Below, in pieces: positions 392 to 63,088 of a stretch of 64,000 bases of DNA. Position 1 is the stretch's first letter; each line of letters begins with the position of its first letter. The translations under genes were made by a program, and so were the position numbers. The stretch is from NCBI RefSeq assembly GCF_003991155.1, contig NZ_CP031293.1; one strand, 5' to 3'. The notes under the pieces are model-generated. The model was given only the letters and a program-made list of their open reading frames with translations, had not been told where the DNA came from and ran no database searches. The stretch comes from Escherichia coli. Lineage in GTDB: Bacteria > Pseudomonadota > Gammaproteobacteria > Enterobacterales > Enterobacteriaceae.

Positions 392-692
392 CTCTACTCT
401 CTCCTTTCGAACATTCTTTGTTCAGACTTCACCATTTTTTAGAGGGTGGTGATATCAAAATTCGCTCATTTTTATGTCCATCCGTTGGGCTTCGTTTTCT
501 GCATTAAAAACAAGTATTGTTTCAATGAGATAAGATTTTCTATGTGATGAAATGAAAATAATGTAGAGGGAAATTTATCCACAATCCTGATGAACGGGTT
601 CAATTTTGATTGGAATTTAAAAAAGCAGGTGATTTACTGATGTGCGAGCTTAAGTCAGCGGCTGCTGGCCTGAGCGCGGAGGTGTGCGAAAT

Positions 693-986
693 TCACATAT
701 CCGGGCATTCCACCTTACCCAGCGCTTCCCAGTAGTTATTCTGATTATTACGCTCCATCGCCACAATAGCTTCGCGGATATGTTGTTTGTTACTCTCATC
801 AGACAACATTAATTTTTCCCACGCTTCGTCTGATAATGACGCCTGTGGCGTGCAAATTTTACGTAAATCTTGCAATACCGTGGTTTTCTCTTTTGCCGAC
901 TGTAGCGAGCTGAATGGCGACTCGGCCTGAGAAATGGCTGGAAAAGTCAGGAATACGGTAATCATGAGTAGCATCGTTGGCTTCAT
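693..986 (-). CDS. yicS: YicS, small exported protein (97 aa)
   Basis: The internal start MKPTMLLMITVFLTFPAISQAESPF... gives a signal peptide and the 97-aa length of K-12 YicS. The upstream extension in the ORF track is probably not translated. Confidence 0.85.
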   Translation of the reverse strand: MKPTMLLMITVFLTFPAISQAESPFSSLQSAKEKTTVLQDLRKICTPQASLSDEAWEKLMLSDESNKQHIREAIVAMERNNQNNYWEALGKVECPDM

Positions 987-1194
987 AGCGGCAACCTTCT
1001 GCAAATGTGCATCGAATGAAGCATAAGTGTAGTTTGCTTTTACCGCTCTCATCATGCTGTACGAAAGGTGTTTGCGTGGTCAGTAAGAAGTGCCAGTTTT
1101 TTATACCTTTTTCTTCTATTCGATAGCTTTTCGTTTTTTAAATCGTAGTGATCTTGCCATTATAGTCAGTTAATGATTAAAAAAAGGATAAAAA

Positions 1195-2013
1195 ATGAAA
1201 CTGACAACACATCATCTACGGGCGGGGGCCGCATTATTGCTGGCAGGAATTCTGCTGGCAGGTTGCGACCAGAGTAGCAGCGATGCAAAACACATTAAAG
1301 TTGGCGTTATAAATGGCGCAGAACAAGATGTCGCGGAAGTCGCTAAAAAGGTGGCAAAAGAGAAATATGGCCTCGATGTTGAACTGGTAGGATTTAGCGG
1401 TTCGTTGCTACCGAACGATGCGACAAATCATGGCGAGCTTGATGCGAACGTCTTCCAGCATCGGCCCTTTCTTGAACAAGATAATCAGGCGCATGGTTAT
1501 AAACTGGTAGCGGTGGGAAATACGTTTGTCTTCCCTATGGCGGGTTATTCCAAAAAAATCAAAACCGTGGCGCAAATAAAAGAAGGCGCGACAGTGGCGA
1601 TCCCCAACGACCCGACCAACCTTGGTCGCGCGCTTTTACTGTTGCAAAAAGAGAAGCTAATTACTCTGAAAGAGGGAAAAGGGTTATTACCTACCGCACT
1701 GGATATAACCGATAATCCTCGTCATTTGCAGATTATGGAACTCGAGGGGGCGCAGCTCCCGCGCGTACTGGATGATCCCAAAGTTGATGTGGCGATTATC
1801 AGCACCACTTACATTCAGCAGACCGGACTTTCTCCGGTGCACGACAGCGTATTTATTGAAGATAAAAATTCGCCGTATGTGAACATTCTGGTAGCACGGG
1901 AAGATAATAAGAATGCAGAAAACGTGAAGGAATTTCTGCAATCTTATCAATCATCCGAAGTCGCTAAAGCGGCAGAAACCATCTTTAACGGTGGCGCGGT
2001 GCCTGGCTGGTAA
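1195..2013 (+). CDS. nlpA: Lipoprotein-28 NlpA (methionine-binding lipoprotein family)
   Basis: 272 aa with the lipobox LLAGC at residues 20-24. It reads full-length like K-12 NlpA/MetQ-family proteins. Confidence 0.95.
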   Translation: MKLTTHHLRAGAALLLAGILLAGCDQSSSDAKHIKVGVINGAEQDVAEVAKKVAKEKYGLDVELVGFSGSLLPNDATNHGELDANVFQHRPFLEQDNQAHGYKLVAVGNTFVFPMAGYSKKIKTVAQIKEGATVAIPNDPTNLGRALLLLQKEKLITLKEGKGLLPTALDITDNPRHLQIMELEGAQLPRVLDDPKVDVAIISTTYIQQTGLSPVHDSVFIEDKNSPYVNILVAREDNKNAENVKEFLQSYQSSEVAKAAETIFNGGAVPGW

Positions 2014-29398: not shown

Positions 29399-30646
29399 TT
29401 AGCCAAATTTAGGTAACACGTTAAAGACGTTACCGAACCAGCATAAAATTACGGTTATACCAAAGAGAATGACAATCGCCGGAATAAGATTGCCGCCCCA
29501 GACTGTGAACATCTGATTGGGAAATTTCTTGCGGGCTTTGATTGCCAGCACTGCGGGAATAATGACCGCCCAGATGGTGGCGCACAGTCCGGCACCGCCG
29601 ATCCCGTAAATAAAGCCGTTCGGGAAGATCAGATACAACAACGCGGGTGGCAGGAAGGTTAACAGCACGGTTTTGAAACGCCCGGCGTGGGAGTTATCAA
29701 TCTTAAACAGATCCGCCAGATAATCGAACAATCCCAGCGTGACACCAAAGAACGAACTGGCAACAGCTAAGTTAGAGAACACCAGCAGGCAAAACTCGAT
29801 AATCCCATGCTGTTTGGTGCCGAGGAATGATTTCACCAGCGAATCAACGTTGCCGCCTGAGGAGATTATCGCCTTAAAGCTTTCTCGCGGGATATTCCCC
29901 ATCGTGCAATAGAGCCAGAAGAGATAAATCACCAGCGCCAGCAGCGAACCGAAGACCACGCTTTTGATTAGCTTATCTTTGCGTTTTCCATAGCAAATAA
30001 TCAGGCTGGGAATATTGCCGTGGAAACCAAATGACGCCAGACACACCGGCAAAGCCATAAAGATATACGGGAAGTAAGACTTACCCGCAGTGGAGCTGGC
30101 TGCATCGCGCAGAATGGAATAATCGGCCTGGAAGAAGAGAGAGCCAAACACGATCACAAAGGAGATAATCTTCAGCCCGAGGAACAATGAGGTAATACGA
30201 CTGGCGGCTAACGAACTTATCCACAATACGCTGGCAACGAAAATGGCTGTGCAGACTCCGACAATACGTGGATTAGCGTGATAACTCAGATTCATTGATA
30301 TCGTTTCGCTAATGATTGCGCCGTTAGCAGAAATATAGGCATAAGTGAGGATATAGAGAACGAAGGCAACGGTAATACCGCTGATAATGTTCCAGGTGTT
30401 ACCGATTAAATCTTTGGCGATGGTGTTAAAACTGGATCCGACGGGATAGTTTAAATTTGCTTCTAATAACAATAACCCGGAATGAAGCATTGAAAACCAG
30501 GCAATGATAAGGATAAAGGCTCCCCAGAAAAACCAGGCACCGGCAAGATCAACAGGTAAAGCAAACATCCCACCGCCAATTACCGTACCGGCTATAACCA
30601 TAACACCCCAAAATGCAGAGTGTTTTTTTTCAGCTTGTTCAGTCAT
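29399..30646 (-). CDS. tnaB: Low-affinity tryptophan permease TnaB
   Basis: 415 aa, collinear with K-12 TnaB with scattered substitutions (for example MTEQAEKK versus MTDQAEKK). Confidence 0.95.
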   Translation of the reverse strand: MTEQAEKKHSAFWGVMVIAGTVIGGGMFALPVDLAGAWFFWGAFILIIAWFSMLHSGLLLLEANLNYPVGSSFNTIAKDLIGNTWNIISGITVAFVLYILTYAYISANGAIISETISMNLSYHANPRIVGVCTAIFVASVLWISSLAASRITSLFLGLKIISFVIVFGSLFFQADYSILRDAASSTAGKSYFPYIFMALPVCLASFGFHGNIPSLIICYGKRKDKLIKSVVFGSLLALVIYLFWLYCTMGNIPRESFKAIISSGGNVDSLVKSFLGTKQHGIIEFCLLVFSNLAVASSFFGVTLGLFDYLADLFKIDNSHAGRFKTVLLTFLPPALLYLIFPNGFIYGIGGAGLCATIWAVIIPAVLAIKARKKFPNQMFTVWGGNLIPAIVILFGITVILCWFGNVFNVLPKFG

Positions 30647-30737
30647 GATGCCACCTTTAGATGAAGGCTATTTTTATTATTGAGGATGTAGGGTAAGAGA
30701 GTGGCTAACATCCTTATAGCCACTCTGAGTGTTTTAA

Positions 30738-32153
30738 TTAAACTTCTTTCAGTTTTGCGGTGAAGTGACGCAATACTTTCGGTTCGTAGGTAAAGGTTAA
30801 CCCTTTAATATTCGCCGCGTTCTCTTTCACATGTTTAAAGGCTTCAATAATGAAGTCCATATGTGTTTGAGTATATGTTGCGCGCGGAATGGTTAAACGC
30901 AGCAGTTCAGCCGGGCATGGCAGTTGTTTACCGGTTTTCGGATCGCGGCCTAACAGGAAAGAGCCAATTTCTACCGCACGGATACCGGCGACTTTATACA
31001 GCTCGCAGGCCAGCGCCTGTGCCGGGAACTGATCTGCCGGGATATGCGGCAGTAGTTTACCGGCATCAACGAATGCCGCGTGACCGCCCGCCTGCTGGCA
31101 GACAACGCCAATCTCTTCCAGGCCATCGACCAGATACTGCACCTGCGCAATACGATAAGCCAGCCAGTCCAGATTCATGCCGTCATACAGACCTACCGCC
31201 AGACGCTCCATAGCGCCGCCTTCCAGGCCGCCATATGTCGGGAAGCCTTCCTGCACCACGCAAAGGGTTCTGCATTCGGTGTACACATCAAAGAAGCTGT
31301 CGTCTTTCATGCACAGCAGGCCGCCCATCGGCACCATCGCATCTTTCTTGGCGGACATCGCCAGCATATCGGCATATTTGTAGGTTTCGCGGGTGATTTG
31401 CTCGATGGTCCAGTCTTTGTATTCTGCTTCACGCTGCTTGATGAAATAGGCGTTTTCGGCAAAGCGTGCGGAGTCCATTACCACCGGAATATCGTATTTC
31501 TTCGCGATGCTGTACATCGCTTTTAAGTTTGCCAGTGAAACCGGCTGACCACCTGCGGAGTTACTGGTGATGGTTGCAACGATATACGGCACGTTATTCG
31601 GGCCAACTTCTTCAATACCGCGTTCTAATCCCTCAAGGTCAAAGTTGCCTTTAAAGTCGTAACGCACGCCCGTATCGAAGGCTTCTTTGATATAGACGTT
31701 ACGCACGGTACAGCCGTTAATCTGGCTATGGCCCTGCGTGGTATCAAAGAAATAGTTAGAGAACGCCACCATTTTGCTGCGATCCAGGCCTTTTTCCTGC
31801 TCGCGTTTTTTAATCAGTACCGGAATATAGATTTGCTCTGCACCACGGCCCTGGTGAGTCGGAATAGTGTATTGATAACCAAAGATATTTTTCACTGACT
31901 CGGCTAACGCGTAGTAGCTGCGGCTGCCGCTGTAAGCTTCGTCGCCGCGCATCATCGCGGCCTGCATACTCTGCGTCACCGCCCCGGTACCGCTGTCGGT
32001 CAGTAAATCGATAAACACATCTTCACTATCCAGCAGGAACGGGTTCATGCCGGCTTTAATAATTGCTTCTTCACGATAAGCGCGAGTGGTACGTTTTACT
32101 GGCTCAATAACACGAATGCGGAACGGTTCAGGGAGATGTTTAAAGTTTTCCAT
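30738..32153 (-). CDS. tnaA: Tryptophanase TnaA
   Basis: From [32 protein letters not shown]... it is 471 aa. The PLP-lysine region reads [12 protein letters not shown]. Confidence 0.95.
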
Positions 32154-32359
32154 TACGTAATCCTTCATTTATTTTAAGGACAGAAAATTACGGAGATATT
32201 GCAAATGCAATACCCGATAGTTCGCTAAAATATTTGCAAGAGACATCATTTATAAAAATGAATGATAGTCTTTACAAAAGCAGAAATAAGATATGCCAAA
32301 CAGACAGGTTAGATGGAATTCAATCTATTTGACAAAAATGATGGTTACAGAAAGGCAAG

Positions 32360-32434
32360 TTAAGGGTGGTGTTCAACAATCTTGTTGTCGATATTGAACC
32401 ATTTTGAGGTCACACATATATGTAAGATATTCAT
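32360..32434 (-). CDS. tnaC: tna operon leader peptide TnaC (24 codons), variant
   Basis: My own translation is MNILHICVTSKWFNIDNKIVEHHP followed by TAA. K-12 reads ...IVDHRP followed by TGA. W12, D16 and P24 are conserved. Confidence 0.9.
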   Translation of the reverse strand: MNILHICVTSKWFNIDNKIVEHHP

Positions 32435-32509
32435 AATGCACTTATCCTCGAAAGACACGAGGTTACAGTATAATACTCAAGAAATTTGTCTATCCTGAAA
32501 TTGTTTAAA

Positions 32510-32525
32510 TGTGAATCGAATCACA
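32510..32525. promoter_or_regulatory. CAP/CRP site of the tna promoter
   Basis: tgtgaatcgaatcaca is a perfect palindrome, TGTGA-N6-TCACA. It lies ~75 nt upstream of the tnaC start, as at the K-12 tna promoter. Confidence 0.8.
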
Positions 32526-33488
32526 GTTGGTTATTAGTGATATAAAATGACAATGATTTTGCATCATTAAAAATATTTATCAATTACGTTGATAAAACTA
32601 TTACATGCAGGTGTTAATAAATGGTGATAAAAATGGTAAATGACAGAGATGTAATGTTGAAGATGATTCCTTGATGAGAATTATGTTCTACGGAAGTGGT
32701 ACATCAACTTTTTGGGAAGGTATATAAATAAAGCAGAATAGATCACGTTTGGCACACATCTGATTACTCATGTAATTAACTAATTTCAGCACGGTTTTTC
32801 TTGCTTTTTTAGAGTAATTAATATACCGATGCCCAAGATGAATATCATAAGAAATACTATCAAAATAATGTCTGGAATGAAATATTATACAGATGAATGA
32901 TTGCGGTTACCTGATGATTTAAATAATGAATATGTGATTTGCTTGTTATATAAGAAAATTTAAATATTGCCGATAGTGTATTGAATAGTGCCTGCTTAAC
33001 GGGGTCCCCTGTTAAGTTGTCAAGCATGTTTATGAGACTGCTGGGGGATAAAAAGTCCCGGCACACATCCTGCTAACAGGACATCACTGCACTGTCTGAG
33101 CGATAAACGCTTGGTTGTGTCGTATTCCACGGCTCATTTTACGTGTGTAGTACGTTTGGGTATTGGTTTTCGGAGAGCAGCAAAGGCTGACAGGAACAAT
33201 GCCCGTTTGATGAGTTTATTGTCTCGTCTTGGCGGATGTTCGCCACATATTGATGAACCGTAACGCTAGGTAAAAAGGGGAAGCAAGACCCCACTGTTTC
33301 ACTTCAAAAGCCTTGCTTATGTAGAGTGATGAGATGGAGTGCCAGAAGGCCTGGAGTGGCAGAATAACGACTGCGGCATGCGTACCGGGAGCGATCATGG
33401 TTTGTTGTACCAGTGCCTGAGTGATGTCTGCCGCGGGGCGTTTTTCAAGATGAGGCTCAAGCTTGCAGGGCTGCCAGCTTCTTTTCAC

Positions 33489-48522: not shown

Positions 48523-49704
48523 TCAGATCTGCTCAGAAAGTGAATCAATGTAGTCAGCATACCACTGCATCATTTCACGGCGACCATCCAGATACTGGGC
48601 ATGATTATAGGTACCTCTGATAGCGTTTTTATCCATATGAGCTAACTGCATTTCAATCCAGGCAGAATTAAAGCCCTGTTCGTGCAGAATTGTACTCATG
48701 GTGTGTCTGAAACCGTGCCCTGTGAGTCTTCCCTTATATCCTAGTAATTCAATGACTTGGTTTATGCTTTCCTTACTAATTGGTTTGCGAGGATCGTTCC
48801 TACCGATAAAGACCAGAGGATGATGTTTTGAGATTGGTTCAAGTTGCTTAAATAGCGCAATGACCTGCTCAGAGAGCGGCACAATATGAGGTCGCTTCAT
48901 CTTCATTACTTCTGCCGGGATCTCCCATAATTTTGTCTCAAAATCGATATCCTCCCAGCGTGCGAAACGCAATTCTTGAGTTCGTACACCAGTTAGCATA
49001 ATGATTTGAGTGGCTGTCTTAGTGATAATACTTCCGGTATAACCCGCCAGATCATTGAGGAAGTGGGGAAGTTCATTAGCAGTAAGAAAGGGAAAATGTA
49101 CTTTTTTCGGTGTAGCTAAAGCACTGGCAAGATCGGGAGCAGGGTTGTAGTTAGCCCGACCAGTAACAATTGCATAGCGGAACACCTCTCCACAGCGCTG
49201 GCGGACCTTACGCATTTTCTCCAGAGCTCCACGTTTTTCCATTTTACGCAATGCTTCCAGTAACTCCATTGGTTTGATTTCAGCAATAGGGCGTTTGCCA
49301 ATATAGGGAAAAATATCTTTTTCAAAGGTATCAATGATTTCATCACGATAGCGTAATGACCACCGATCGGCTTTTGACTGATGCCATTCTCGAGCAACGG
49401 CCTCAAATGTGTTTTTCAAACTCATTTGCAGCGCGATTTTTTCTTCTTTTTTTGTCTCACCCGGATCGCATCCTGCAGCGAGGATTTTCCTAGCTTCACT
49501 GCGTTTTTCGCGAGCGTCGGCTAGAGTTACATCGGGGTATACGCCAATAGAAAGCATCTTTTCTTTGCCAGCAAAGCGGTACTTCATACGCCAATATTTA
49601 GAACCATTAGTGTTAATGAGTAGATACATACCGCCACCATCAGACAGCTTATAGGGCTTTTCTTTTGGTTTTGCGGTTTTCACTTTAATATCAGTTAACG
49701 CCAT
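48523..49704 (-). CDS. P4-type tyrosine integrase
   Basis: 393 aa. The N-terminus MALTDIKVKTAKPKEKPYKLSDGGGMYLLI is DUF4102-like. The catalytic region has HGFRHTMST and GTYNHAQY. It lies adjacent to the selC 3' end. Confidence 0.9.
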   Translation of the reverse strand: MALTDIKVKTAKPKEKPYKLSDGGGMYLLINTNGSKYWRMKYRFAGKEKMLSIGVYPDVTLADAREKRSEARKILAAGCDPGETKKEEKIALQMSLKNTFEAVAREWHQSKADRWSLRYRDEIIDTFEKDIFPYIGKRPIAEIKPMELLEALRKMEKRGALEKMRKVRQRCGEVFRYAIVTGRANYNPAPDLASALATPKKVHFPFLTANELPHFLNDLAGYTGSIITKTATQIIMLTGVRTQELRFARWEDIDFETKLWEIPAEVMKMKRPHIVPLSEQVIALFKQLEPISKHHPLVFIGRNDPRKPISKESINQVIELLGYKGRLTGHGFRHTMSTILHEQGFNSAWIEMQLAHMDKNAIRGTYNHAQYLDGRREMMQWYADYIDSLSEQI

Positions 49705-49999: not shown

Positions 50000-50094
50000 T
50001 GGCGGAAGATCACAGGAGTCGAACCTGCCCGGGACCGCTGGCGGCCCCAACTGGATTTGAAGTCCAGCCGCCTCACCGGAGACGACGATCTTCC
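50000..50094 (-). tRNA. selC: tRNA-Sec (selenocysteine, UCA anticodon)
   Basis: The minus strand reads GGAAGATCGTCGTCTCCGGTGAGGCGGCTGGACTTCAAATCCAGTTGGGGCCGCCAGCGGTCCCGGGCAGGTTCGACTCCTGTGATCTTCCGCCA. This is the 95-nt E. coli selC sequence, with its long extra arm and 8-bp acceptor stem. Confidence 0.97.
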
Positions 50095-51778: not shown

Positions 51779-54097
51779 ATGAAAATTAGCGACGGAAACT
51801 GGTTGATTCAACCTGGCCTCAATTTGATTCACCCGCTTCAGGTGTTCGAGGTTGAACAGCAGGGTAATGAAATGGTGGTCTATGCTGCCCCTCGTGATGT
51901 GCGTGAACGTACCTGGCAGCTTGATACGCCTTTATTTACGCTGCGCTTTTTCTCCCCACAGGAAGGTATTGTCGGTGTACGGATTGAGCATTTTCAGGGG
52001 GCGCTGAATAACGGTCCTCATTATCCGCTCAATATTTTGCAGGACGTGAAGGTCACAATCGAAAACACAGAACGTTACGCTGAGTTTAAAAGTGGCAACT
52101 TAAGCGCGCGTGTCAGCAAAGGTGAGTTCTGGTCACTGGATTTTCTGCGCAACGGCGAACGTATTACCGGTAGTCAGGTGAAAAATAACGGCTACGTGCA
52201 GGACACGAATAATCAACGAAATTATATGTTTGAGCGGCTGGATCTTGGCGTTGGCGAAACAGTTTACGGTCTGGGAGAGCGCTTTACTGCCCTGGTGCGC
52301 AATGGCCAGACGGTAGAGACCTGGAACCGGGACGGCGGCACAAGTACTGAACAGGCGTATAAAAATATTCCGTTCTATATGACTAACCGTGGTTATGGGG
52401 TACTGGTCAATCATCCTCAATGCGTCTCTTTTGAAGTGGGATCGGAGAAAGTCTCCAAAGTGCAGTTCAGCGTTGAGAGTGAATATCTCGAATACTTTGT
52501 TATCGACGGCCCGACGCCGAAAGCGGTACTTGATAGTTATACCCGTTTTACTGGTCGTCCGGCGCTGCCGCCCGCGTGGTCCTTCGGCCTGTGGCTAACC
52601 ACTTCATTTACCACCAACTACGACGAAGCGACGGTAAACAGCTTTATCGATGGTATGGCGGAACGCAATCTGCCGCTGCATGTTTTCCACTTTGACTGTT
52701 TCTGGATGAAAGCCTTCCAGTGGTGCGATTTTGAGTGGGACCCGCTGACTTTCCCGGACCCGGAAGGGATGATCCGCCGCCTGAAAGCGAAAGGGCTAAA
52801 AATCTGCGTCTGGATTAACCCCTATATCGGGCAAAAATCCCCTGTCTTTAAAGAGTTACAAGAGAAAGGTTATTTACTCAAACGCCCGGACGGTTCGCTG
52901 TGGCAGTGGGATAAATGGCAGCCAGGTCTGGCGATTTATGACTTTACCAATCCGGATGCCTGCAAATGGTACGCCGACAAACTGAAAGGTCTGGTCGCGA
53001 TGGGCGTTGATTGCTTTAAGACCGACTTTGGCGAACGTATTCCAACCGATGTTCAATGGTTTGATGGTTCCGATCCGCAGAAAATGCATAACCATTATGC
53101 GTACATCTACAACGAACTGGTGTGGAACGTGCTCAAGGAAACCGTTGGCGAGGAAGAAGCCGTCTTGTTTGCCCGCTCGGCCTCCGTCGGTGCGCAGAAA
53201 TTCCCGGTACATTGGGGTGGCGACTGTTACGCTAACTACGAATCAATGGCGGAAAGCCTGCGCGGTGGTTTGTCTATTGGCCTTTCTGGTTTTGGCTTCT
53301 GGAGCCACGATATCGGCGGCTTTGAGAATACCGCTCCGGCGCACGTTTACAAACGCTGGTGCGCGTTTGGTTTGCTCTCCAGCCATAGCCGTTTACACGG
53401 CAGCAAATCTTATCGTGTGCCGTGGGCCTATGATGATGAGTCCTGTGATGTGGTGCGCTTCTTCACGCAACTGAAATGCCGCATGATGCCGTATCTGTAT
53501 CGTGAAGCTGCACGTGCAAACGCCCGGGGTACCCCGATGATGCGGGCCATGATGATGGAGTTCCCGGACGATCCGGCTTGTGATTACCTTGACCGTCAAT
53601 ACATGTTAGGCGATAACGTGATGGTTGCTCCGGTGTTCACTGAAGCGGGCGATGTGCAGTTCTACCTGCCGGAAGGTCGCTGGACACACCTGTGGCACAA
53701 CGATGAACTCGACGGTAGTCGCTGGCATAAACAGCAGCACGGCTTCCTGAGTCTGCCCGTTTATGTGCGTGATAACACCCTACTGGCGCTGGGCAACAAC
53801 GAGCAACGTCCCGATTACGCGTGGCACGAAGGCACGGCATTCCAGCTCTTTAATCTGCAAGACGGGCATGAAGCCATCTGTGAAGTGCCCGCTGCCGATG
53901 GTTCCGTTCTTTTCACCCTGAAAGCGGCGCGTACTAGCAACACAATTACTGTGACTGGTGCGGGCGTGGCGAAGAACTGGACGCTGTGCTTGCGCAATGT
54001 TGTGAAAGTAAATGGTCTGCAAGGCGGTTCGCAGGCTGAAAGTGAGCAGGGGCTGGTGGTGACGCCTCAAGGGAATGCGCTGACAATTACGTTGTAA
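51779..54097 (+). CDS. yicI: Alpha-xylosidase YicI (GH31)
   Basis: 772 aa starting [40 protein letters not shown]... The GH31 catalytic region reads KTDFGE / WGGD. Confidence 0.95.
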
Positions 54098-54391
54098 TCT
54101 ATTGAAGAATGCCGGATACGAATGGTTTTGTGTCGTATCCGGTAAATAATCTCACATCTGGTAATAAATATTTCTTCCATCGTATTTGCGAGCATGATCA
54201 CGATTATTCATCACGAAAATGTGATCTGTGCTGAAAAATATCCCTTAACCGCCTTGCTTTGTTTTATCACTGTCCGGATTACGGACATATTTTAGTATTG
54301 TTGTGAAATTATTCTGCTTTATATTTACCCTCAGAGATGGCAACTGAAGCTCTTCCTCATAGGGCTTCTTAATCTGTGATAAGGGTAAAAA

Positions 54392-55945
54392 ATGCAAATG
54401 ATTACCTCGCGACAAAACAGATTATTACGATTCCTTTTACCTCGAAGGGAATATACGACTATTGTTACGATTGCCGGCTATTTAAATGTTTCGGAAAAAA
54501 CCATTCAACGTGATTTACGTTTACTTGAGCAATGGCTGGGGCAATGGAGAATAAATGTTGAGAAGCGTGCTGGCGCGGGTGTGATGTTAAGCGCGGAGAA
54601 TATTGCTGATTTGCTGCATCTTGATCATTTGTTGGGAGCAGAATGTGAAGAGATTGATGGTGTAATGAATAATGCCAGGCGCGTTAAAATAGCGTCGCAG
54701 TTATTAAGTGAAACACCGAATGAAACGTCGATCAGTAAATTGTCAGAACGCTACTTTATCAGCGGAGCCTCTATTGTTAATGACCTGAGAGTAATTGAGT
54801 CCTGGCTTGCGCCGTTGGGGTTATCATTGATCCGCAGCCCAAGTGGTACGCATATTGAAGGTAGTGAAGGGCAAGTCCGACAGGCAATGGCATTACTGAT
54901 TAACGGCATTATTAACCATAATGAGCCGCAAGGTGTCGTGTATTCACGTCTGGATCCCGGAAGTTATAAAGCATTAGTCCATTATTTTGGAGAAGAAGAG
55001 GTGTTATTTGTCCAGTCATTGTTACTGGATATGGAAAATGAATTAAGTTGGTCTTTGGGAGAGCCTTATTACGTTAACATTTTTACTCACATCCTTATTA
55101 TGATGTATCGCAACACGCACGGGAATGCGTTATCCAGAGAAGAAGATCAAACCAGGCAATATGATGAAAATATCTTTAATGTTGCCAGTCAGATGATTCA
55201 TAAGATAGAACAACGAATTGCACATACATTGCCCGATGATGAAGTCTGGTTTATTTATCAATATATCATTTCATCAGGTGTGGCGATTGATGGACAAAAA
55301 GATGTGAGCATTATTTCACATATGCAGGCCAGCAATGAAGCGCGTCTGATTACCTGGCGTTTAATTACGGTATTCAGTGACATCGTGGACTGCGATTTTA
55401 GTGAAGACAGCGCATTATATGATGGCTTGTTGGTTCATATTAAGCCGCTGATTAACCGACTAAATTATCGCATTCATATCCGTAATCCATTGCTGGAAGA
55501 TATTAAAGCAGAATTAGCGGATGTCTGGCGGTTGACGCAATATGTGGTGAATCAGGTATTTAAAACCTGGGGTGAGAATGCAGTGAGCGAGGATGAAGTG
55601 GGTTACCTGACCGTTCATTTTCAGGCTGCGATGGAGCGGCAAATTGCCCGTAAACGCGTATTACTGGTCTGTTCAACCGGAATCGGAACTTCGCATCTAC
55701 TGAAAAGCCGTATTCTGCGAGCGTTTCCTGAATGGACGATTGTTGATGTTATTTCAGCAGCGAATTTATCACAGGTTTTGCCTGACAATATCGAACTGAT
55801 TATTTCGACCATTAATTTGCCTACAGTCACTATGCCGGTCGCTTATGTTACCGCTTTTTTTAATGATGCCGATATTAAGCGGGTCACTGAAATGGTGATT
55901 ACGGAAAAATTACATCATGCGACGTCTCGGGTCGTTGAAATTTAA
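54392..55945 (+). CDS. PRD-domain transcriptional regulator (MtlR/LicR/BglG-activator type: HTH + 2 PRD + EIIB-like domain)
   Basis: 517 aa with the N-terminal HTH IAGYLNVSEKTIQRDLRLLEQWL. The C-terminal KRVLLVCSTGIGTSHLLKSRI is an EIIB(Gat)-like Cys loop. Confidence 0.75.
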   Translation: MQMITSRQNRLLRFLLPRREYTTIVTIAGYLNVSEKTIQRDLRLLEQWLGQWRINVEKRAGAGVMLSAENIADLLHLDHLLGAECEEIDGVMNNARRVKIASQLLSETPNETSISKLSERYFISGASIVNDLRVIESWLAPLGLSLIRSPSGTHIEGSEGQVRQAMALLINGIINHNEPQGVVYSRLDPGSYKALVHYFGEEEVLFVQSLLLDMENELSWSLGEPYYVNIFTHILIMMYRNTHGNALSREEDQTRQYDENIFNVASQMIHKIEQRIAHTLPDDEVWFIYQYIISSGVAIDGQKDVSIISHMQASNEARLITWRLITVFSDIVDCDFSEDSALYDGLLVHIKPLINRLNYRIHIRNPLLEDIKAELADVWRLTQYVVNQVFKTWGENAVSEDEVGYLTVHFQAAMERQIARKRVLLVCSTGIGTSHLLKSRILRAFPEWTIVDVISAANLSQVLPDNIELIISTINLPTVTMPVAYVTAFFNDADIKRVTEMVITEKLHHATSRVVEI

Positions 55946-55971
55946 TGTCAGAATTTTATGAGGTATGACGA

Positions 55972-56442
55972 ATGGACATAACAAAAATCCTGAATACGAA
56001 TCGCGTTATTTTAGATATGCAAGCGACGAATAAAGCGGAGGCGATTGAAGAATTAACTAATCTTCTCAAAAAAGATGGTGCGATCGATTGTCGGGAAACC
56101 TTTATTAAAGATGTCTGGCAGCGCGAAGCGGAAGGCTCGACTGGTTTTGAAAATCATATTGCGATCCCGCATGGTAAATCTTCTGCGGTAATTAATACTA
56201 CGCTGGCAATTGGCCGTACCCGCCAGGATATTCCCTGGGAAACGCTGGATGGCAGTAGCGTGCGCTGTATTATTTTATTTGCGGTACGTCTTGAAGATCA
56301 AAATACCACTCATATCCGTTTACTTTCCCAGGTCGCGGGCGCGCTGGCGGATGATGACATCATAGAACAATTGTTAGTTGAGACGAGTCCGCAAAAAATC
56401 ATTGATCTCTTTAGTCAGTATGCACAATCCGATGTCTGCTAA
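55972..56442 (+). CDS. PTS EIIA component, fructose/mannitol (type 2) family
   Basis: 156 aa with the active-site context FENHIAIPHGKS. Confidence 0.85.
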   Translation: MDITKILNTNRVILDMQATNKAEAIEELTNLLKKDGAIDCRETFIKDVWQREAEGSTGFENHIAIPHGKSSAVINTTLAIGRTRQDIPWETLDGSSVRCIILFAVRLEDQNTTHIRLLSQVAGALADDDIIEQLLVETSPQKIIDLFSQYAQSDVC

Positions 56443-56459
56443 ATAACAGGGAGTATGTC

Positions 56460-56774
56460 ATGAATATTGTCTGTGTTGCCGCCTGTACGGCGGGTATTGC
56501 TCATACCTATATTGCTCGTGAAAAGTTAATCAAAGGAGCAAAAGCTCTGGGCCATACCATTAAAGTTGAAACCCAGGGAACCATTGGTACAGAAAATGAA
56601 TTACAGGCGGCAGATATCTCTGCTGCTGACGTCGTGATTCTTGCTGTAGATGTGAAAATAAAAGGAGAAGAACGCTTCACCAATAAACGTATTGTGCGAG
56701 TAAAGACAGAGATCGTCATTAAATCGCCCGTTCAATTTCTTGAAAAGGTCGAAAAATCACTGGGAAACAAATGA
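56460..56774 (+). CDS. PTS fructose-type EIIB component
   Basis: 104 aa. MNIVCVAACTAGIAHTYIAREKL matches the C(P/T)xGIAHTY phospho-Cys loop of FrwB/FrvB-type EIIB. Confidence 0.85.
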   Translation: MNIVCVAACTAGIAHTYIAREKLIKGAKALGHTIKVETQGTIGTENELQAADISAADVVILAVDVKIKGEERFTNKRIVRVKTEIVIKSPVQFLEKVEKSLGNK

Positions 56775-56798
56775 TCCTTATACTGGAGGGATCTTAAT

Positions 56799-57890
56799 AT
56801 GAAAGACAATAAAATTCCGGTTTCACAGGAAATTAAAAAACATTTATTAACCGGCATCTCGTGGATGATACCCCTTATTGTGGCCGCCGGGATATGTATT
56901 GCGTTGGGGCAAGTTCTTGGCGGTACAGATGTTGGTGAAAAAACAGGAACAATCCCGTGGATGCTTAATCAGATTGGCGGCTGGGGAATGGGGCTGATTG
57001 TGCCGCTGATTAGCGCGGCAATTGCCTATTCTATTGCCGATCGTCCCGGATTTGCCCCGGGTCTGATTGTCGGCTTTCTCTGTGGGCAAATCCATACCGG
57101 ATTTATTGGCGGTATGTTGGGTGGTTTCCTGGTGGGCTACACCATTTTGCTACTTAAACGCTATATCCGCCTGCCGCAGTCGATGCAAGGACTCATGCCA
57201 ATCATGGTGTTGCCGGTATTAAGCACCATTATCGGTGGGCTGTTAATGATGACGCTGATTGGTAAACCCATCGCCTGGTTACAAGAAGCACTGATTCATT
57301 TGCTCGAGTCGATGCAGGGCGGATCGCGCTTCCTGATGGGGGCCATACTTGGCGCGATGGCAACCTTCGATTTCGGTGGTCCGGTCAACAAAACCATGTC
57401 GCTGTTTTCCGATGGCTTGCTGGTCAGTGGCGTCTACGGACCAGAAGCCGTGAAATTTGTCGGCTCAATCATCCCTCCGTTTGGCATCACACTTTCGTTC
57501 TTACTGACACGCCATAAATACACCCGTGCGGAGCGCGAGGCGCTGAAAGCCGCGTTTCCGATGGGGATCTGCATGATCACTGAAGGAGTCATTCCGATCG
57601 CCGCGCGTGACCTGCTGCGAGTAGTGGGATCTTGTGTGGTGGCATCGGCGGTCGCGGGCGGCTTAATCATGGTGTGGGGCGTGGAGAGTCCGGTTCCGCA
57701 TGGCGGCATGTTTGTTGTGCCTCTGTTCACCCATCCTCTGCTGTTTTGCCTGGCGCTGGGTATAGGCACGGTGATTTGTGGCGTGATGCTTTCACTCTGG
57801 AAGAAACCGGTAACGGAACGCGACGAAGAGTTTGACGAACTGAGCGATCAAAAGCTGAAAGATGAAGAGATCACTTTCACCCTCGAATAA
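56799..57890 (+). CDS. PTS fructose-type EIIC permease
   Basis: 363-aa polytopic protein placed directly after EIIB, with an acidic C-terminal tail. Confidence 0.8.
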   Translation: MKDNKIPVSQEIKKHLLTGISWMIPLIVAAGICIALGQVLGGTDVGEKTGTIPWMLNQIGGWGMGLIVPLISAAIAYSIADRPGFAPGLIVGFLCGQIHTGFIGGMLGGFLVGYTILLLKRYIRLPQSMQGLMPIMVLPVLSTIIGGLLMMTLIGKPIAWLQEALIHLLESMQGGSRFLMGAILGAMATFDFGGPVNKTMSLFSDGLLVSGVYGPEAVKFVGSIIPPFGITLSFLLTRHKYTRAEREALKAAFPMGICMITEGVIPIAARDLLRVVGSCVVASAVAGGLIMVWGVESPVPHGGMFVVPLFTHPLLFCLALGIGTVICGVMLSLWKKPVTERDEEFDELSDQKLKDEEITFTLE

Positions 57891-57901
57891 CCGGAGGCCC
57901 T

Positions 57902-58753
57902 ATGTTTGCCGATATGAAAAGTATGGTGATGAAAGCCTGGCATGAACATTACGCCTTACTGGCGATCAACTGTATGAATCTGGAAAGTGCTCACGCAGCT
58001 ATCCGCGTGGCGGAGAAGAATCGCGCTCCGATCATTCTCAATCTCTATCAGGGGCATCTGGCGCATTTTCCAGCACCCGTCGCGGCGGCAGTGGTTAAAA
58101 CGCTCGCGGAATCTGCCTCAGTACCGGTCGCTCTGGCGCTTGATCATGGCAAAAATCCGGACTGTATTCGTCAGGCGTTTCGTGCTGGTTTCAGCGGATT
58201 AATGATTGATGCTTCTGCTTTTCCCCTGGAGGAAAACGTGCGCCAGACCAGGGCGGTGGTGGAACTCGCCGCCAGCGTGCAGCTCTGCGTGGAAGGCGAA
58301 CTGGGCCATCTGGCAGATGCGCCGCGTTACGACCAGGCCGCCAATGCAGACCTGATGACGCAACCCACTGATGTGGAACCGTTTATCGCGCAGACAGGCA
58401 TTGATCTACTGGCCGTCTCGGTAGGCACGGCGCACGGCATGTACGCGCCTGGTGTTGTACCTGCTATTGATTTTCAGCGTCTGGCGGAGATTTTCCACTG
58501 CTCGAGCGTGCCTCTGGCATTACATGGCGGTAGCGGTACGCCGTTCGATCAGCTCCAGCTCTGTACGACGCTGGGGGTAGCAAAAATCAACGTGGGGGCG
58601 GCCATTTTTGAACGGGGGAAATCCGCGCTCCTGCATACCCTCTGTCACGATATATCCATTGAACTGGTGGACGCGCTGAAAGCTATGGAACTGGCCTTCG
58701 AAGAAGCGATTACACCGTATTTACAGGCGAGCGGCTCTATCGGCAAAGCCTGA
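57902..58753 (+). CDS. Class II ketose-bisphosphate aldolase family protein (paralogue 1)
   Basis: 283 aa with the motifs LALDHGK, EGELGHL, GTAHGMY and LALHGGSG. Confidence 0.8.
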   Translation: MFADMKSMVMKAWHEHYALLAINCMNLESAHAAIRVAEKNRAPIILNLYQGHLAHFPAPVAAAVVKTLAESASVPVALALDHGKNPDCIRQAFRAGFSGLMIDASAFPLEENVRQTRAVVELAASVQLCVEGELGHLADAPRYDQAANADLMTQPTDVEPFIAQTGIDLLAVSVGTAHGMYAPGVVPAIDFQRLAEIFHCSSVPLALHGGSGTPFDQLQLCTTLGVAKINVGAAIFERGKSALLHTLCHDISIELVDALKAMELAFEEAITPYLQASGSIGKA

Positions 58754-58833
58754 TTCATTTTCTGTCATGGCCTTTATGCCAGTGCAATAACGCACCGGCA
58801 GGGCGGACTACACGCTGAAACTGGAGATTTAAC

Positions 58834-59694
58834 ATGTTAGTTTCGATGAAAGAATTACTGCAACCTACCCGCCAGCACGGCTTTGCCATTGGCGCATTTA
58901 ATGTGGCGGATAACTGTTTCCTTCGCGCAGTCGTGGATGAAGCAGAAGCGACAAATACTCCGGCGATTATTGCCATCCATCCCAGCGAACATGATTTTGT
59001 GGGCGATGCCTTTTTCGCTCACGTTCGCGAAATTACCCAGCGTAGTCCGGTCCCGTTTGTACTGCACCTCGATCATGGTGCCTCTGTAGAGCATGTTTTG
59101 CGTGCGATTCGCTGCGGATTTACCTCAGTAATGATCGACGGTTCGCTGCTGCCGTATGAAGAAAACGTGGCGCTGACCGCAGAAGTGGTTCGCCTCGCTC
59201 ACGCGGTTGGAGTGTCGGTTGAGGGTGAACTGGGAACCATCGGACAAACAGGAACGTCGGTAGAAGGTGGTGTTTCACAAGTGACCTACACAGATCCGGC
59301 GCAGGCCGCCGATTTTATTGCTCGTACAGGTGCCGACACTCTGGCTGTGGCGATTGGTACAGCACATGGCATCTATCCAAAAGGGATGCAGCCGAAGCTG
59401 CAAATGGACATTTTGCGCGACATTGCCGGACGTATTGATATTCCGCTGGTGCTACACGGTGGTTCGGCAAACCCGGACGCGGAGATTGCTGAATCAGTTA
59501 CGCTCGGCGTCGGCAAAATCAATATCTCCAGCGATATGAAATACGCCTATTTCCAGAAAGTGCGTGAAATTCTCGCTAAAGAGAGCTGGTGGGACCCGAA
59601 CGTCATCTATCCGGATGCGATTAACGCGGCGCGGGAAGTCATTCGCCACAAAATGAAACTGTTCGGTTCGCTCGGTAAAGCATCACTGTACTAA
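58834..59694 (+). CDS. Class II ketose-bisphosphate aldolase (GatY/KbaY/FbaA-like, paralogue 2)
   Basis: 286 aa with the motifs LHLDHGAS, EGELGTIG, GTAHGIY and LVLHGGSA. Confidence 0.85.
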   Translation: MLVSMKELLQPTRQHGFAIGAFNVADNCFLRAVVDEAEATNTPAIIAIHPSEHDFVGDAFFAHVREITQRSPVPFVLHLDHGASVEHVLRAIRCGFTSVMIDGSLLPYEENVALTAEVVRLAHAVGVSVEGELGTIGQTGTSVEGGVSQVTYTDPAQAADFIARTGADTLAVAIGTAHGIYPKGMQPKLQMDILRDIAGRIDIPLVLHGGSANPDAEIAESVTLGVGKINISSDMKYAYFQKVREILAKESWWDPNVIYPDAINAAREVIRHKMKLFGSLGKASLY

Positions 59695-59701
59695 GCCAGA
59701 A

Positions 59702-59722
59702 GGGCGGGGTGACCCGCCTTTT
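59702..59722 (+). terminator. Small intrinsic terminator or attenuator between aldolase 2 and the ROK kinase gene
   Basis: The stem ggcggg/cccgcc with loop GTGA is followed by TTTT, starting 8 nt after the aldolase stop. Confidence 0.5.
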
Positions 59723-59741
59723 ACGCAACAAGGAACGAGAA

Positions 59742-60674
59742 ATGCACTATCTGGGGTTGGATATTGGTGGGACCAAAATCGCCGCCGTCGTCATGGATGC
59801 GCATGGCTGGGAGATTCGCCGTTACCGCTGCCCGACGCAAAAGTCGACATATCAACAATTTGTCTCATGTGTTGTGGCGCTTATCGAGCAGATTAGGCGG
59901 GACGTTCAACGACCGATGCTGACAGGGATCGCCTTACCCGGCAGTATCTCGCCACTCACTGGCCTGATTAAAAACGCGAATATTCAGGTGATTAACGGTC
60001 ATGCGTTACAGGCTGATTTGCAGCAATTGCTTGGGCAACCGGTGGTGATAGCCAATGATGGTAACTGTTTCGCGCTATCAGAAGCTTGCGACGGTGCCGG
60101 GCAAGATTATGACGTGGTATTTGGTATTACGCTTGGTACGGGCTGCGGCGGTGGCATTGCCATCAAGCAACGACCGTTTATAGGGGCCTGGGGAAATGCT
60201 GCCGAATGCGGTCATATCACGTTGCCAGGCTATACGGAGCAGGAAGATGGTCCATCAGTCAGTTGCTATTGCGGCAAACACAACTGCGTGGAGTCGTTTG
60301 TTTCCGGCAGCGGTTTTAGTGAACGCTATCAACAGATGACTGGTAACTTGCTCACTCCTGCGGCGATTGTCACCCTGGCACAACGTGGTGATGCTGGTGC
60401 CATGCAGCAGGTGGCACGTTTTCGCCAACAGCTTGCCCGCACGCTGGCAACCATCGTTAATGTTGTTGACCCTGGCGTGATTGTGATCGGCGGCGGGCTT
60501 TCGAATGTGGAACTGCTTATCACCGATCTGAACGCAGAAGTTGCTCCACTGGTTTTCACCGATCAATTCACCACTCCCATTGTAAAAGCACAGCACGGCG
60601 ACAGTAGCGGAATGCGTGGCGCTGCCTGGCTTGCTATGCGCAACGGAGAAGCCAATGAAACGTTCACAAATTAA
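59742..60674 (+). CDS. ROK-family sugar kinase
   Basis: From MHYLGLDIGGTKIAAVVMD (ATP-binding DxGGT motif). The zinc motif reads GHITLPG...CYCGKHNCVES. An AAGGAA Shine-Dalgarno is present. Confidence 0.85.
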   Translation: MHYLGLDIGGTKIAAVVMDAHGWEIRRYRCPTQKSTYQQFVSCVVALIEQIRRDVQRPMLTGIALPGSISPLTGLIKNANIQVINGHALQADLQQLLGQPVVIANDGNCFALSEACDGAGQDYDVVFGITLGTGCGGGIAIKQRPFIGAWGNAAECGHITLPGYTEQEDGPSVSCYCGKHNCVESFVSGSGFSERYQQMTGNLLTPAAIVTLAQRGDAGAMQQVARFRQQLARTLATIVNVVDPGVIVIGGGLSNVELLITDLNAEVAPLVFTDQFTTPIVKAQHGDSSGMRGAAWLAMRNGEANETFTN

Positions 60675-61335
60675 TTATGTTATTGATAAAGCACATGCCA
60701 TTGCGCAGACCTTCCGCGTTTGTTTGCCAGAGTTCGCCTATTTTACGGTGGATGACTGGCTGCAGCGGGAACGGGATAACTGGCAAGAAGTGGTCGACTT
60801 ACAGCTCGGTTGGGATATCACCGATTTTGGTCGTGGTGATTTCAACCAAACGGGACTAACACTGCTAACGATGCGCAACGGCGCGCTGGGGTCGGCGGCA
60901 TATCCAAAACCGTATGCTGAGAAAATGTTGCAGATCCAACAAGATCAGCAGACTCCCTGGCATTTTCACACCCACAAAATGGAAGATATCCTCAATCGGG
61001 GCGGTGGAGACTTATGCATGCAGTTGGCCTGGGCCAACGAAGCCAATCTCTGTGATGATCAACGAGTCATTACCGTGAGTGTTGATGGTCAGCGGCGTAC
61101 CATGAAACCTGGTGAAACGCTGGTGCTAAAGCCGGGGCAGGGCATTTGCCTGCCGCCGCGTCTGTATCATCGCTTCTGGGCGGAAAAAGCGTTTGTTCTC
61201 GGCTGGGAAATTTCGATGGTAAATGATGACCAACACGATAATTATTTTCTTGAGCCGGGAGGACGTTTTCCGGCGATAGAAGAAGATGAACCGGTGAAAT
61301 GGTTATTGTGCAGTGAGTATGGAATTTTGCGCTAA
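60655..61335 (+). CDS. Cupin-type D-lyxose/D-mannose ketol-isomerase
   Basis: From MKRSQINYVIDKAH... The metal site reads WHFHTHKMEDILNRGGG. A GGAGA Shine-Dalgarno is present. It overlaps the kinase 3' end by 20 nt. Confidence 0.8.
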   Translation: MKRSQINYVIDKAHAIAQTFRVCLPEFAYFTVDDWLQRERDNWQEVVDLQLGWDITDFGRGDFNQTGLTLLTMRNGALGSAAYPKPYAEKMLQIQQDQQTPWHFHTHKMEDILNRGGGDLCMQLAWANEANLCDDQRVITVSVDGQRRTMKPGETLVLKPGQGICLPPRLYHRFWAEKAFVLGWEISMVNDDQHDNYFLEPGGRFPAIEEDEPVKWLLCSEYGILR

Positions 61336-61344
61336 TAACGGGGA

Positions 61345-61380
61345 ACGCTAGCGCTGATATCCGCTAGCGTCCTTATTTTT
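61345..61380 (+). terminator. Rho-independent terminator after the isomerase gene (convergent with the yicH stop)
   Basis: The stem acgctagcg/cgctagcgt with an 8-nt loop is followed by ccTTATTTTT. Confidence 0.7.
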
Positions 61381-63088
61381 ACTGCACCGGCTCCGTCGAC
61401 GTAACTTCACCACTGGAAACGACGCCCGCATTTATGGTTTGAGTCACTTGCTGCTTTGCGGCATTCACGGCATGCAATTGCCCGCTAACCGTAGGTTTCA
61501 GCGGGACATTGGCCTGAATATCGCCACTGGCGGTAAGCTGAATATTGCCGTCGCCAGTCAACGGTAATTCAGGCCATCCCCAATGTTGCAAAATATTCAC
61601 CGGCACACCGCGTCCATTCAGGCTGATATGGGTCTGACGTTGTGGCGTTTGTGAAACACTGGCGGTGGCTTCCAGAATGCCTTTTTCAGTAAATGCACTC
61701 AGTTCGCTGATATTCACCGTGCTGCTGTTGGCGGTCAGCGCCAGCGATGGGCGACGAACATCAACACGATTGAATGTCGCGGCGGCGGCATTCAGATTCG
61801 CCGAACCACTCCAGACGCCCCATTTATGATCGGTAACCAGCGTCAGGTTGGCACCGTAACCATCGAGCGCGGTGAGCTGCCACGGGAAGTCAGGGTCGAT
61901 ATCAATGATCAGATTGCGGCTGGCGCTAAATCTCTTCAGTTGCAGGCTGTTTAACCAACCGGGTGTCGTTTCCATCCACAACTGTTGCCAGTTTTTTGGC
62001 AAGGTATATTCCAGTCCGGCAATTGCCGCATCATCGAGGATCAACATTTTCCCGTCACGCAACCAGTTCCCTGACGTTCTGACCATGCCCCCTTCCCAGC
62101 GGCTGGTGAACTGGCGCAGTGCTACGCCCTGCGGGGAAAATTCCGCGTTTATAATCGGGTCAAATAAATGCAGCGAACCATAAATGAACTCGCTGGCGTT
62201 CATCGACAGTTTGCCTTCCTGTGTCTGCCAGTCATCTTTACTGAAGGTCATGTTGCGCAAGCTGAGATCGAGGTCGGTCACCGCCCAGTCCGGACCTTGC
62301 AAACGAGCATCGATCACTTCCAGGCGACCAATCTGCAACGACGGGACAGAGCGTAATGGCGCAAAGAAGTCGGTTAGCGATTTTTCGCTTTGTAGACGGA
62401 TATCCGCCATGCGCAGATTTTCCACTTGCCAGCTGCCGTCGGCGTTACGCTGCGCGTTTCCGGTTAATGTCCCGCGGGCGATGTCGGCACCCAGGTTAGT
62501 CAGCGTAACGCGATCGTTATCAATACTGCCTTCAATCAGTACATTGGTGGCAGGAACATCATTGAGCGAAAGCGATCCGGCACTAAACTGAATCTGCGCC
62601 TTCGTACCCAGCACTTTACCGGCTTCTGGTGACCACGGAACCACGCCGCCATTTACCCGCTGCGCGCTCAGTTTCCATTCGCTATTCGGGCTATTAAACG
62701 CCATATTACGCAGTTGCAGACGATCGGCTTTGAACGGTAGCGGCGCGGTCTGGTCGGTGAGATTCAGCGTCCCGTTTTCCAGCAGGATGGTATCGACATG
62801 GCGTGGTTCGGTCAGTTGCCGACTGCTTAGCGCAATGTCGACACTTTTTGCCACCAGGGTCGCGGGCTGGCCATCACGACCAAACGTGACGTTCTCCAGC
62901 ACGATATGAGATGGCGCGGAAAAACGGTGATCCATCGCCCCGAAGGCCAGATGATAGTCGCTATTCTCGGAAACCCATGCGCTGATATGTTCTGCTCCCC
63001 AGCGAGTTTGCAGAAGAAAATAGAGGCCAGCGATCACCACTAACAGAGCGATGAGAATGTAGAGAAGCAGCTTCCCAATAAATTTCAT
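61379..63088 (-). CDS. yicH: AsmA-family protein YicH
   Basis: The start is trimmed to MKFIGKLLLYILIALLVVIAGLYFLLQTRWG..., giving the 569 aa of K-12 YicH. Confidence 0.9.
   Translation of the reverse strand: MKFIGKLLLYILIALLVVIAGLYFLLQTRWGAEHISAWVSENSDYHLAFGAMDHRFSAPSHIVLENVTFGRDGQPATLVAKSVDIALSSRQLTEPRHVDTILLENGTLNLTDQTAPLPFKADRLQLRNMAFNSPNSEWKLSAQRVNGGVVPWSPEAGKVLGTKAQIQFSAGSLSLNDVPATNVLIEGSIDNDRVTLTNLGADIARGTLTGNAQRNADGSWQVENLRMADIRLQSEKSLTDFFAPLRSVPSLQIGRLEVIDARLQGPDWAVTDLDLSLRNMTFSKDDWQTQEGKLSMNASEFIYGSLHLFDPIINAEFSPQGVALRQFTSRWEGGMVRTSGNWLRDGKMLILDDAAIAGLEYTLPKNWQQLWMETTPGWLNSLQLKRFSASRNLIIDIDPDFPWQLTALDGYGANLTLVTDHKWGVWSGSANLNAAAATFNRVDVRRPSLALTANSSTVNISELSAFTEKGILEATASVSQTPQRQTHISLNGRGVPVNILQHWGWPELPLTGDGNIQLTASGDIQANVPLKPTVSGQLHAVNAAKQQVTQTINAGVVSSGEVTSTEPVQ

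Follow-up and report, generated by a model that had tools for sequence, protein, structure and literature searches.

The yicI-yicH segment of an Escherichia coli genome as the frz operon: gene content, junction alleles and a possible sugar pathway

An accessory carbohydrate operon named frz has been described in extraintestinal pathogenic Escherichia coli (ExPEC). For the avian ExPEC strain BEN2908, the citing passages of a later genome paper trace the operon to Rouquet et al. (2009, J Bacteriol 191:4427), and that genome paper (2026) lists the genomic region GR27, 'yicH..yicI', as the 7227-bp frz operon and scores it as present in the ExPEC and adherent-invasive E. coli (AIEC) strains of its table, LF82 included (PMC12928451). 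The operon has been reviewed as a single transcription unit (PMC8777976), and it is reported to aid late-stationary-phase survival when oxygen is restricted, to promote colonisation of the intestine and to bias the type 1 fimbriae switch towards ON (PMC8777976, PMC3325963, PMC6727828). Here we compare with it the segment between yicI and yicH (54098-61378) in a 64,000-nucleotide stretch of the E. coli contig NZ_CP031293.1 (assembly GCF_003991155.1), the whole of which we call the window. The eight genes of this segment are almost certainly the frz operon, a named and published locus and so one that was already known. As frz has counted as an ExPEC-associated fitness factor since 2009, its rediscovery is of small value in itself; knowing its sugar would explain why carbohydrate genes affect fitness in the gut and outside it as well as the switching of type 1 fimbriae.

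Identity and gene content of the segment

Site and size of the window segment agree with those of GR27 (yicH..yicI in both; 7227 bp in BEN2908 and about 7.23 kb here), and we see no difference of substance between the two. The GR27-positive strain LF82 is 99.4% identical to the window segment over 100% of the query length. Full-length matches were also obtained in Nissle 1917 (99.1%) and 83972 (99.2%). Positions 54098-61378 are 100% identical in E. coli 2016C-3878, which was isolated from a human rectal swab and whose RefSeq gene calls agree exactly with those made in the window, including the starts of the kinase gene (59742) and the isomerase gene (60655). The original prediction, which was made from the DNA letters, had described eight co-directional genes for a PRD regulator, a fructose-type phosphotransferase system (PTS), two class II aldolases, a ROK kinase and a D-lyxose isomerase, and this description is borne out by the open reading frame (ORF) map, which has eight intact plus-strand genes between yicI and yicH, by family scans and by the RefSeq calls (Table 1). 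The 2009 work of Rouquet and colleagues reportedly lists an activator of the Mga family together with three PTS subunits of the fructose type, a pair of class II aldolases, a cupin protein and a ROK kinase; the gene content that family scans give for the window agrees with that list.

Table 1. Genes and sequence features of the yicI-yicH region in window coordinates
Feature	Position	Strand	Remark
yicI	51779-54097	+	
Hairpin after the yicI stop (GCCGGATACGA...TCGTATCCGG)	54111-54142	+	-18.3 kcal/mol, z -4.8
TGTGATCTG block	54220-54228	+	invariant in five genera
Inverted repeat TGTCCGG-N-CGGACA	54271-54287	+	half-sites TGTCC/GGACA invariant in five genera
-35-like TTGTTG	54298	+	cross-genus alignment
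-10-like TATATT	54320	+	cross-genus alignment
frzR, PRD regulator	54392-55945	+	family scans
EIIA, fructose-family PTS	55972-56442	+	family scans
EIIB, fructose-family PTS	56460-56774	+	family scans
EIIC, fructose-family PTS membrane permease	56799-57890	+	family scans
Class II aldolase 1	57902-58753	+	family scans
Class II aldolase 2	58834-59694	+	family scans
Hairpin AAGGGCGGG-GUGA-CCCGCCUUUU	59699-59722	+	-20.5 kcal/mol, z -4.4
ROK kinase	59742-60674	+	family scans
Cupin isomerase	60655-61335	+	family scans
Hairpin followed by a T-run, between the converging isomerase gene and yicH	61342-61372	+	
yicH	from 61379	-	converges on isomerase

The three PTS proteins all pass the fructose-family models by a clear margin: EIIA scores 127 bits with TIGR00848 (cut-off 103.5), EIIB 100 bits with TIGR00829 (cut-off 76.85) and EIIC 311.6 bits with TIGR01427 (cut-off 157.55). 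EIIA carries the IAIPHG histidine motif within NHIAIPHGK, and EIIB carries MNIVCVAACTAGIAHT, with a cysteine in its N-terminal motif ACTAGIAHT; we take this histidine and this cysteine to be the phosphorylatable residues of fructose-family EIIA and EIIB. By these family matches, frz encodes a complete fructose-family permease set of EIIA, EIIB and EIIC.

Both aldolases belong to PF01116 (253.7 bits for aldolase 1 and 304.8 bits for aldolase 2), so the tandem class II paralogues of the original prediction are indeed present. Alignments to 1GVF, 1RV8 and 7NCC, which include AgaY and a Thermus fructose-bisphosphate aldolase (FBA), show that the Asp-His, Glu and two His motifs are intact in each of them. 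Aldolase 1 is divergent: it retains the DH, GELG, GTAHG and LHGG motifs, it falls below every NCBIfam cut-off, and its C-terminal third does not align to AgaY. Aldolase 2 passes only TIGR00167 and the PRK08185 'hypothetical' subfamily (525.9 bits, cut-off 405). Identification of either protein as a fructose-bisphosphate or tagatose-bisphosphate aldolase equivalog was rejected, all FBA, GatY and KbaY scores of both being below cut-off. The two aldolases are mutually only 33% identical and each is conserved in other genera at 78-92%, and for these reasons they are, judged by sequence, old paralogues and not the simple functional duplicates that the original prediction had considered.

The kinase matches PF00480 (249.6 bits) over residues 3-299 of 310 and has no N-terminal DNA-binding domain. 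Its nearest models are the Mak fructokinase and NagK; it scores 246 with the NagK equivalog, whose cut-off is 380, and that identity was rejected.

The cupin isomerase is of the D-lyxose/D-mannose type (PF07385, 291.4 bits). Its metal-ligand and catalytic residues H103, H105, K108, E110, H172, E185 and D192 are invariant in 15 sequences across clades, and their spacing matches that of the essential residues of characterised lyxose isomerases (PMC8378251). The sole PDB match is 3KMH/3MPB, the D-lyxose isomerase Z5688 of E. coli O157:H7 (van Staalduinen et al. 2010). The original prediction's statement that a homologous isomerase of pathogenic E. coli had been studied structurally is thus correct for the family, but the solved protein is a paralogue; the frz isomerase is not Z5688 itself, since it has 48% identity to the O157 enzyme type and lies at a different locus. 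The Z5688-type cluster stands between yjdP and yjcS, comprises genes for a sensor kinase, an ATP-binding cassette (ABC) transporter, the isomerase, a class II aldolase, a PfkB kinase and a response regulator, and occurs in 410 of the 5426 complete E. coli genomes that were surveyed. We also note that the isomerase of O157:H7 TR01 (L084 7001-7684) is 95% identical to the crystallised Z5688, which is more divergence than is expected within O157:H7.

Junction alleles, regulatory sequences and transcript

A survey of the yicI-yicH junction across E. coli, as proposed with the original prediction, found the frz segment in 1606 genomes (about 30%), all but five of which (1601/1606) cover at least 80% of it, and an empty junction with a 52-bp spacer in 3816. 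Of the 5424 genomes in which the flanks are matched, 5422 have either the filled or the empty allele, and the site is therefore essentially biallelic. The hairpin just after the yicI stop, which has no U-tract, has a diverged counterpart in the 52-bp spacer of frz-less genomes, so that the part truly differing from the empty allele begins only at about 54144 and runs to about 61374 (about 7.23 kb).

The regulator FrzR has HTH_11 and Mga HTH domains, two PRDs and an EIIB-like domain by family scan. RefSeq names it 'BglG family transcription antiterminator', a name that is misleading because the protein has the HTH_11/Mga DNA-binding domains and gave no CAT_RBD match in the domain scan, i.e., no CAT RNA-binding domain; a BglG/SacY-type RNA-binding antiterminator was also rejected on the absence of any Rfam match in the leader. 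The Rfam scan covered 53900-61600 at E<=1 and returned no match, and so no riboswitch or ribonucleic antiterminator (RAT)-like element. When the region upstream of frzR was aligned from five genera, four invariant blocks were found. One of them (TGTGATCTG) may be a putative CRP-like half-site, and the inverted repeat just upstream of the -35-like box is a candidate FrzR operator, given that FrzR has DNA-binding domains. The sigma-70 scan gave no site at its threshold in the yicI-frzR spacer (overall 6 sites, and 10.8 in shuffled sequences), and we infer the promoter proposed upstream of frzR only from cross-genus conservation.

The small terminator-like hairpin that had been predicted at 59702-59722, between aldolase 2 and the kinase, is present and spans a few nucleotides more (Table 1). 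No shuffled sequence folds equally well, and in four genera its GGCGGG/CCCGCC stem is invariant and its loop variable, a pattern that points to selection on the structure. The terminator consensus scan did not list it, because it is followed by only four U. The predicted 20-nt overlap of kinase and isomerase is likewise there, the isomerase ATG at 60655 preceding the kinase stop that ends at 60674. Downstream of the isomerase, the last hairpin of the segment is a probable terminator.

How the segment came to its site and how it is transcribed each have an alternative explanation. The original prediction spoke of an islet, that is, an insertion, and the presence/absence polymorphism within E. 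coli would fit a recent mobile element put between yicI and yicH by horizontal transfer, as would a step in base composition within the operon, where the upstream spacer and the first three genes (frzR, EIIA and EIIB) are AT-rich (GC 37-44%, third-position GC 34-41%) and the genes from EIIC to the isomerase have, like the flanks, 50-56% GC. Against this, Citrobacter has the operon at this very site, with yicJ-yicI before the eight genes and yicH-xanP-gltS-recG after them, and there the frz proteins are 76-96% identical to those of the window, a divergence like that of the flanking YicJ, YicI and YicH (82-90%). The eight-gene block is found also in Phytobacter, Raoultella and an Enterobacter metagenome-assembled genome, with a yicH homologue downstream of it in Phytobacter and Raoultella; these loci come from the best 80 of 600 stretches in a scan of genome contigs, and counts of frz-type loci are thus lower bounds. 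Allelic divergence of frz within E. coli is up to 1.6%, which is in the range expected for E. coli core genes. These comparisons make a recent islet quite improbable and favour frz as an old segment at yicI-yicH that has been lost or exchanged by homologous recombination among E. coli lineages. Great age at this site would also account for the lack of mobility signatures, which had been noted in the original prediction and holds on inspection: there is no integrase, insertion sequence (IS) or tRNA among the genes at the locus in the ORF map and RefSeq annotation, and a repeat search of the two edges turned up nothing but short matches at chance level, with no flanking direct repeats. As to the transcript, the original prediction's hint of two regulatory sub-units would have the regulator, PTS and aldolase genes on one transcript and the kinase and isomerase genes expressed independently on another. 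The hairpin at that boundary is stable and has a short U-tract, its stem is conserved among genera, and the 20-nt overlap translationally couples the last two genes. However, the literature has the region transcribed as one operon (PMC8777976), the promoter scan found no promoter-like site in the 47-nt gap between aldolase 2 and kinase, and a hairpin with four U fails the terminator consensus. Two separate units are accordingly rather unlikely; given the short U-tract and the single published transcript, partial termination within one operon fits better, and the hairpin probably serves either for this or for mRNA stability.

Several neighbouring features of the window and of related loci deserve mention. 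In Phytobacter (L004 582-1436) the left flank of frz is a DUF4942 gene and not yicI, and the right flank yicH-xanP is kept; the same DUF4942 family occurs in a CP4-like module (cbtA/yeeU, DUF4942) in the window. That module belongs to a genomic island of about 45 kb (about 5400-49700), which with a tyrosine integrase gene (about 48523-49704) adjoins the tRNA-Sec gene selC (50000-50094, minus strand), just upstream of yicJ. The island also contains a second tnaCAB copy (about 30176-33211), an otnK/aldolase/DeoR cluster, pseudouridine kinase and glycosidase genes, and remnants of IS66, IS3 and IS110. At the other end of the window (1-1200), adjoining yicS, genes are annotated as an SycD/LcrH-type chaperone and an SipB-like type III translocator, and these look like part of an ETT2-like type III secretion region.

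A recurring cassette and a possible pathway

The last genes of frz have relatives in other settings. Among the 85 isomerase loci listed, a class II aldolase lies within 3 kb in 24 and a PfkB kinase is nearby in 21. A version with an ABC transporter occurs in Serratia proteamaculans, Yersinia pestis, Enterobacter, Kosakonia, Leclercia, Cedecea, Yokenella, Pasteurellaceae and E. coli O157. The version in Salmonella has a major facilitator superfamily (MFS) transporter, a mutarotase (aldose 1-epimerase), the isomerase (62%), a class II aldolase, a PfkB kinase, a Zn-alcohol dehydrogenase and a DeoR regulator. Because isomerase, aldolase and kinase adjoin one another in three transporter contexts (ABC, MFS and PTS), they are, as far as gene neighbourhood can tell, parts of one recurring pathway with interchangeable transporters. 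The presence of a Zn-alcohol dehydrogenase in Salmonella suggests that the aldehyde set free by the aldolase carries no phosphate, and this would imply cleavage of a ketose 1-phosphate. A limited literature search bearing on the ABC/Z5688-type cluster found no description of its pathway.

We note in addition that the ABC-isomerase-aldolase-PfkB cluster is accompanied by a two-component system in O157:H7 TR01 (L084 3495-10261), Serratia proteamaculans (L013 6408-12572) and Yersinia pestis (L025), and that the Salmonella enterica cassette (L087 7598-14541 and L088 2647-9590) adjoins a phage-type integrase and transposases and so lies in a mobile island.

The original prediction had pointed to the puzzle of a PTS, which delivers a phosphorylated sugar, beside a kinase and an isomerase that act on free sugars. 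This is answered in outline only, by a scheme with two points of entry that we offer as a tentative sketch, possible though not the likelier case, and built by analogy with better known systems. FrzR would be controlled by the PTS phosphorelay through its PRD and EIIB-like domains and would activate the promoter in the 294-bp yicI-frzR spacer. The PTS would import a fructose-like sugar, phosphorylating it at C1 by analogy with FruA, and the aldolases would split the resulting ketose phosphate into dihydroxyacetone phosphate (DHAP) and an aldehyde, either directly, as in YdjI and the class II sulfofructose-1-phosphate aldolases, or after a second phosphorylation. The isomerase and the ROK kinase would bring a free aldose of the lyxo or manno type into the same ketose-phosphate pool, and, owing to the hairpin before the kinase gene, the last two genes are probably expressed at a lower level than the six that precede them. 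It is a more doubtful step, which we consider unlikely as it stands, to regard frz as the PTS-fed form of a widespread uncharacterised isomerase/class II aldolase/kinase cassette that degrades lyxo/manno sugars through a ketose 1-phosphate to DHAP and a free aldehyde. If that were true, the cassette would be a natural counterpart of the engineered xylulose-1-phosphate route, the ROK kinase of frz would replace the PfkB kinase, and the two frz aldolases would have different substrates.

Other functions can be proposed for the same genes. The published phenotypes, phase switching of type 1 fimbriae and stress fitness (PMC8777976, PMC6727828), and the fact that a growth substrate is not reported in the literature searched, would suit a mainly sensory PTS, in which the phosphorylation of FrzR and of the PTS components would report on nutrient state and govern other genes, e.g., the fim switch, with little carbon flux through the encoded enzymes. 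But the four enzymes have intact catalytic motifs and are 67-92% conserved across genera, and nearly all carriers in the survey keep at least 80% of the segment, which argues for selection on catalysis; a chiefly sensory role is in our view doubtful. A D-tagatose/D-talose pathway, in which tagatose 1-phosphate made by the PTS is cleaved by a GatY/KbaY-like aldolase, has in its favour that both aldolases match the tagatose-bisphosphate aldolases AgaY and KbaY at E values of 1e-40 to 1e-50, and that lyxose isomerases interconvert D-talose and D-tagatose. Nissle 1917, however, carries frz, and deletion of its accC-yhdT tag cluster abolishes both growth on and consumption of D-tagatose, aerobically and anaerobically (PMC9720028). 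Since this frz-positive strain cannot use tagatose without the separate cluster, D-tagatose is a very improbable substrate.

Turning back to the identification with frz and the account built upon it, several points weigh against them. For the genes that Rouquet and colleagues reportedly listed in 2009, and for their reported failure to identify the substrate, we depend on secondary citations. Literature searches aimed at the locus found no substrate assignment; the original prediction's view that the locus has no defined physiological substrate stands to that extent, since no published assignment turned up in the searchable literature, but the gap was already recognised, the locus having been published as frz. 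A fructose-type PTS normally works with a PfkB 1-phosphofructokinase, and a ROK kinase beside it is unexpected; the frz kinase, moreover, scores 317 with the Mak equivalog, whose cut-off is 443. The isomerase fails the equivalog of the characterised Gram-negative enzyme (NF051472; 272, cut-off 350). Finally, the fim switch and stress fitness phenotypes could reflect signalling and not carbon flux. With these points counted, we give the whole account, that is, the frz identity together with what is built on it here, a probability of roughly 0.85. The search for the frz substrate is narrowed by the old site held in common with Citrobacter, by the isomerase-aldolase-kinase triad with its three kinds of transporter, by the recognition of Z5688 as a paralogue and by the improbability of D-tagatose.

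Comparison with known systems

The regulator resembles the MtlR/LicR/Mga-type PRD activators, with which it has its HTH_11, Mga HTH, two PRDs and EIIB-like domain in common, and it differs from them in that the domain scan detected no C-terminal EIIA-like domain in FrzR. In the permease, the nearest familiar system is E. coli FruBKA, since EIIA, EIIB and EIIC are all of the fructose family in both. The three domains are separate proteins in frz, however, and frz has no FPr and no 1-phosphofructokinase, scores 297 with the FruA equivalog (cut-off 793) and is regulated by a PRD activator and not by Cra.

The enzymes are closest to two other kinds of system. In the Z5688 cluster the isomerase is likewise a PF07385 cupin that shares its catalytic residues with the frz enzyme, and genes for a class II aldolase and a sugar kinase come after it, but the cluster uses an ABC transporter and a two-component system instead of a PTS and a PRD regulator, its kinase is a PfkB and not a ROK protein, and it has one aldolase where frz has two. 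YdjI of E. coli (6OFU) and the class II sulfofructose-1-phosphate aldolases (PMC10665668) are, like the frz proteins, PF01116 aldolases linked to an aldose-ketose isomerase and a kinase, and frz differs from these routes in taking up its sugar through a PTS.

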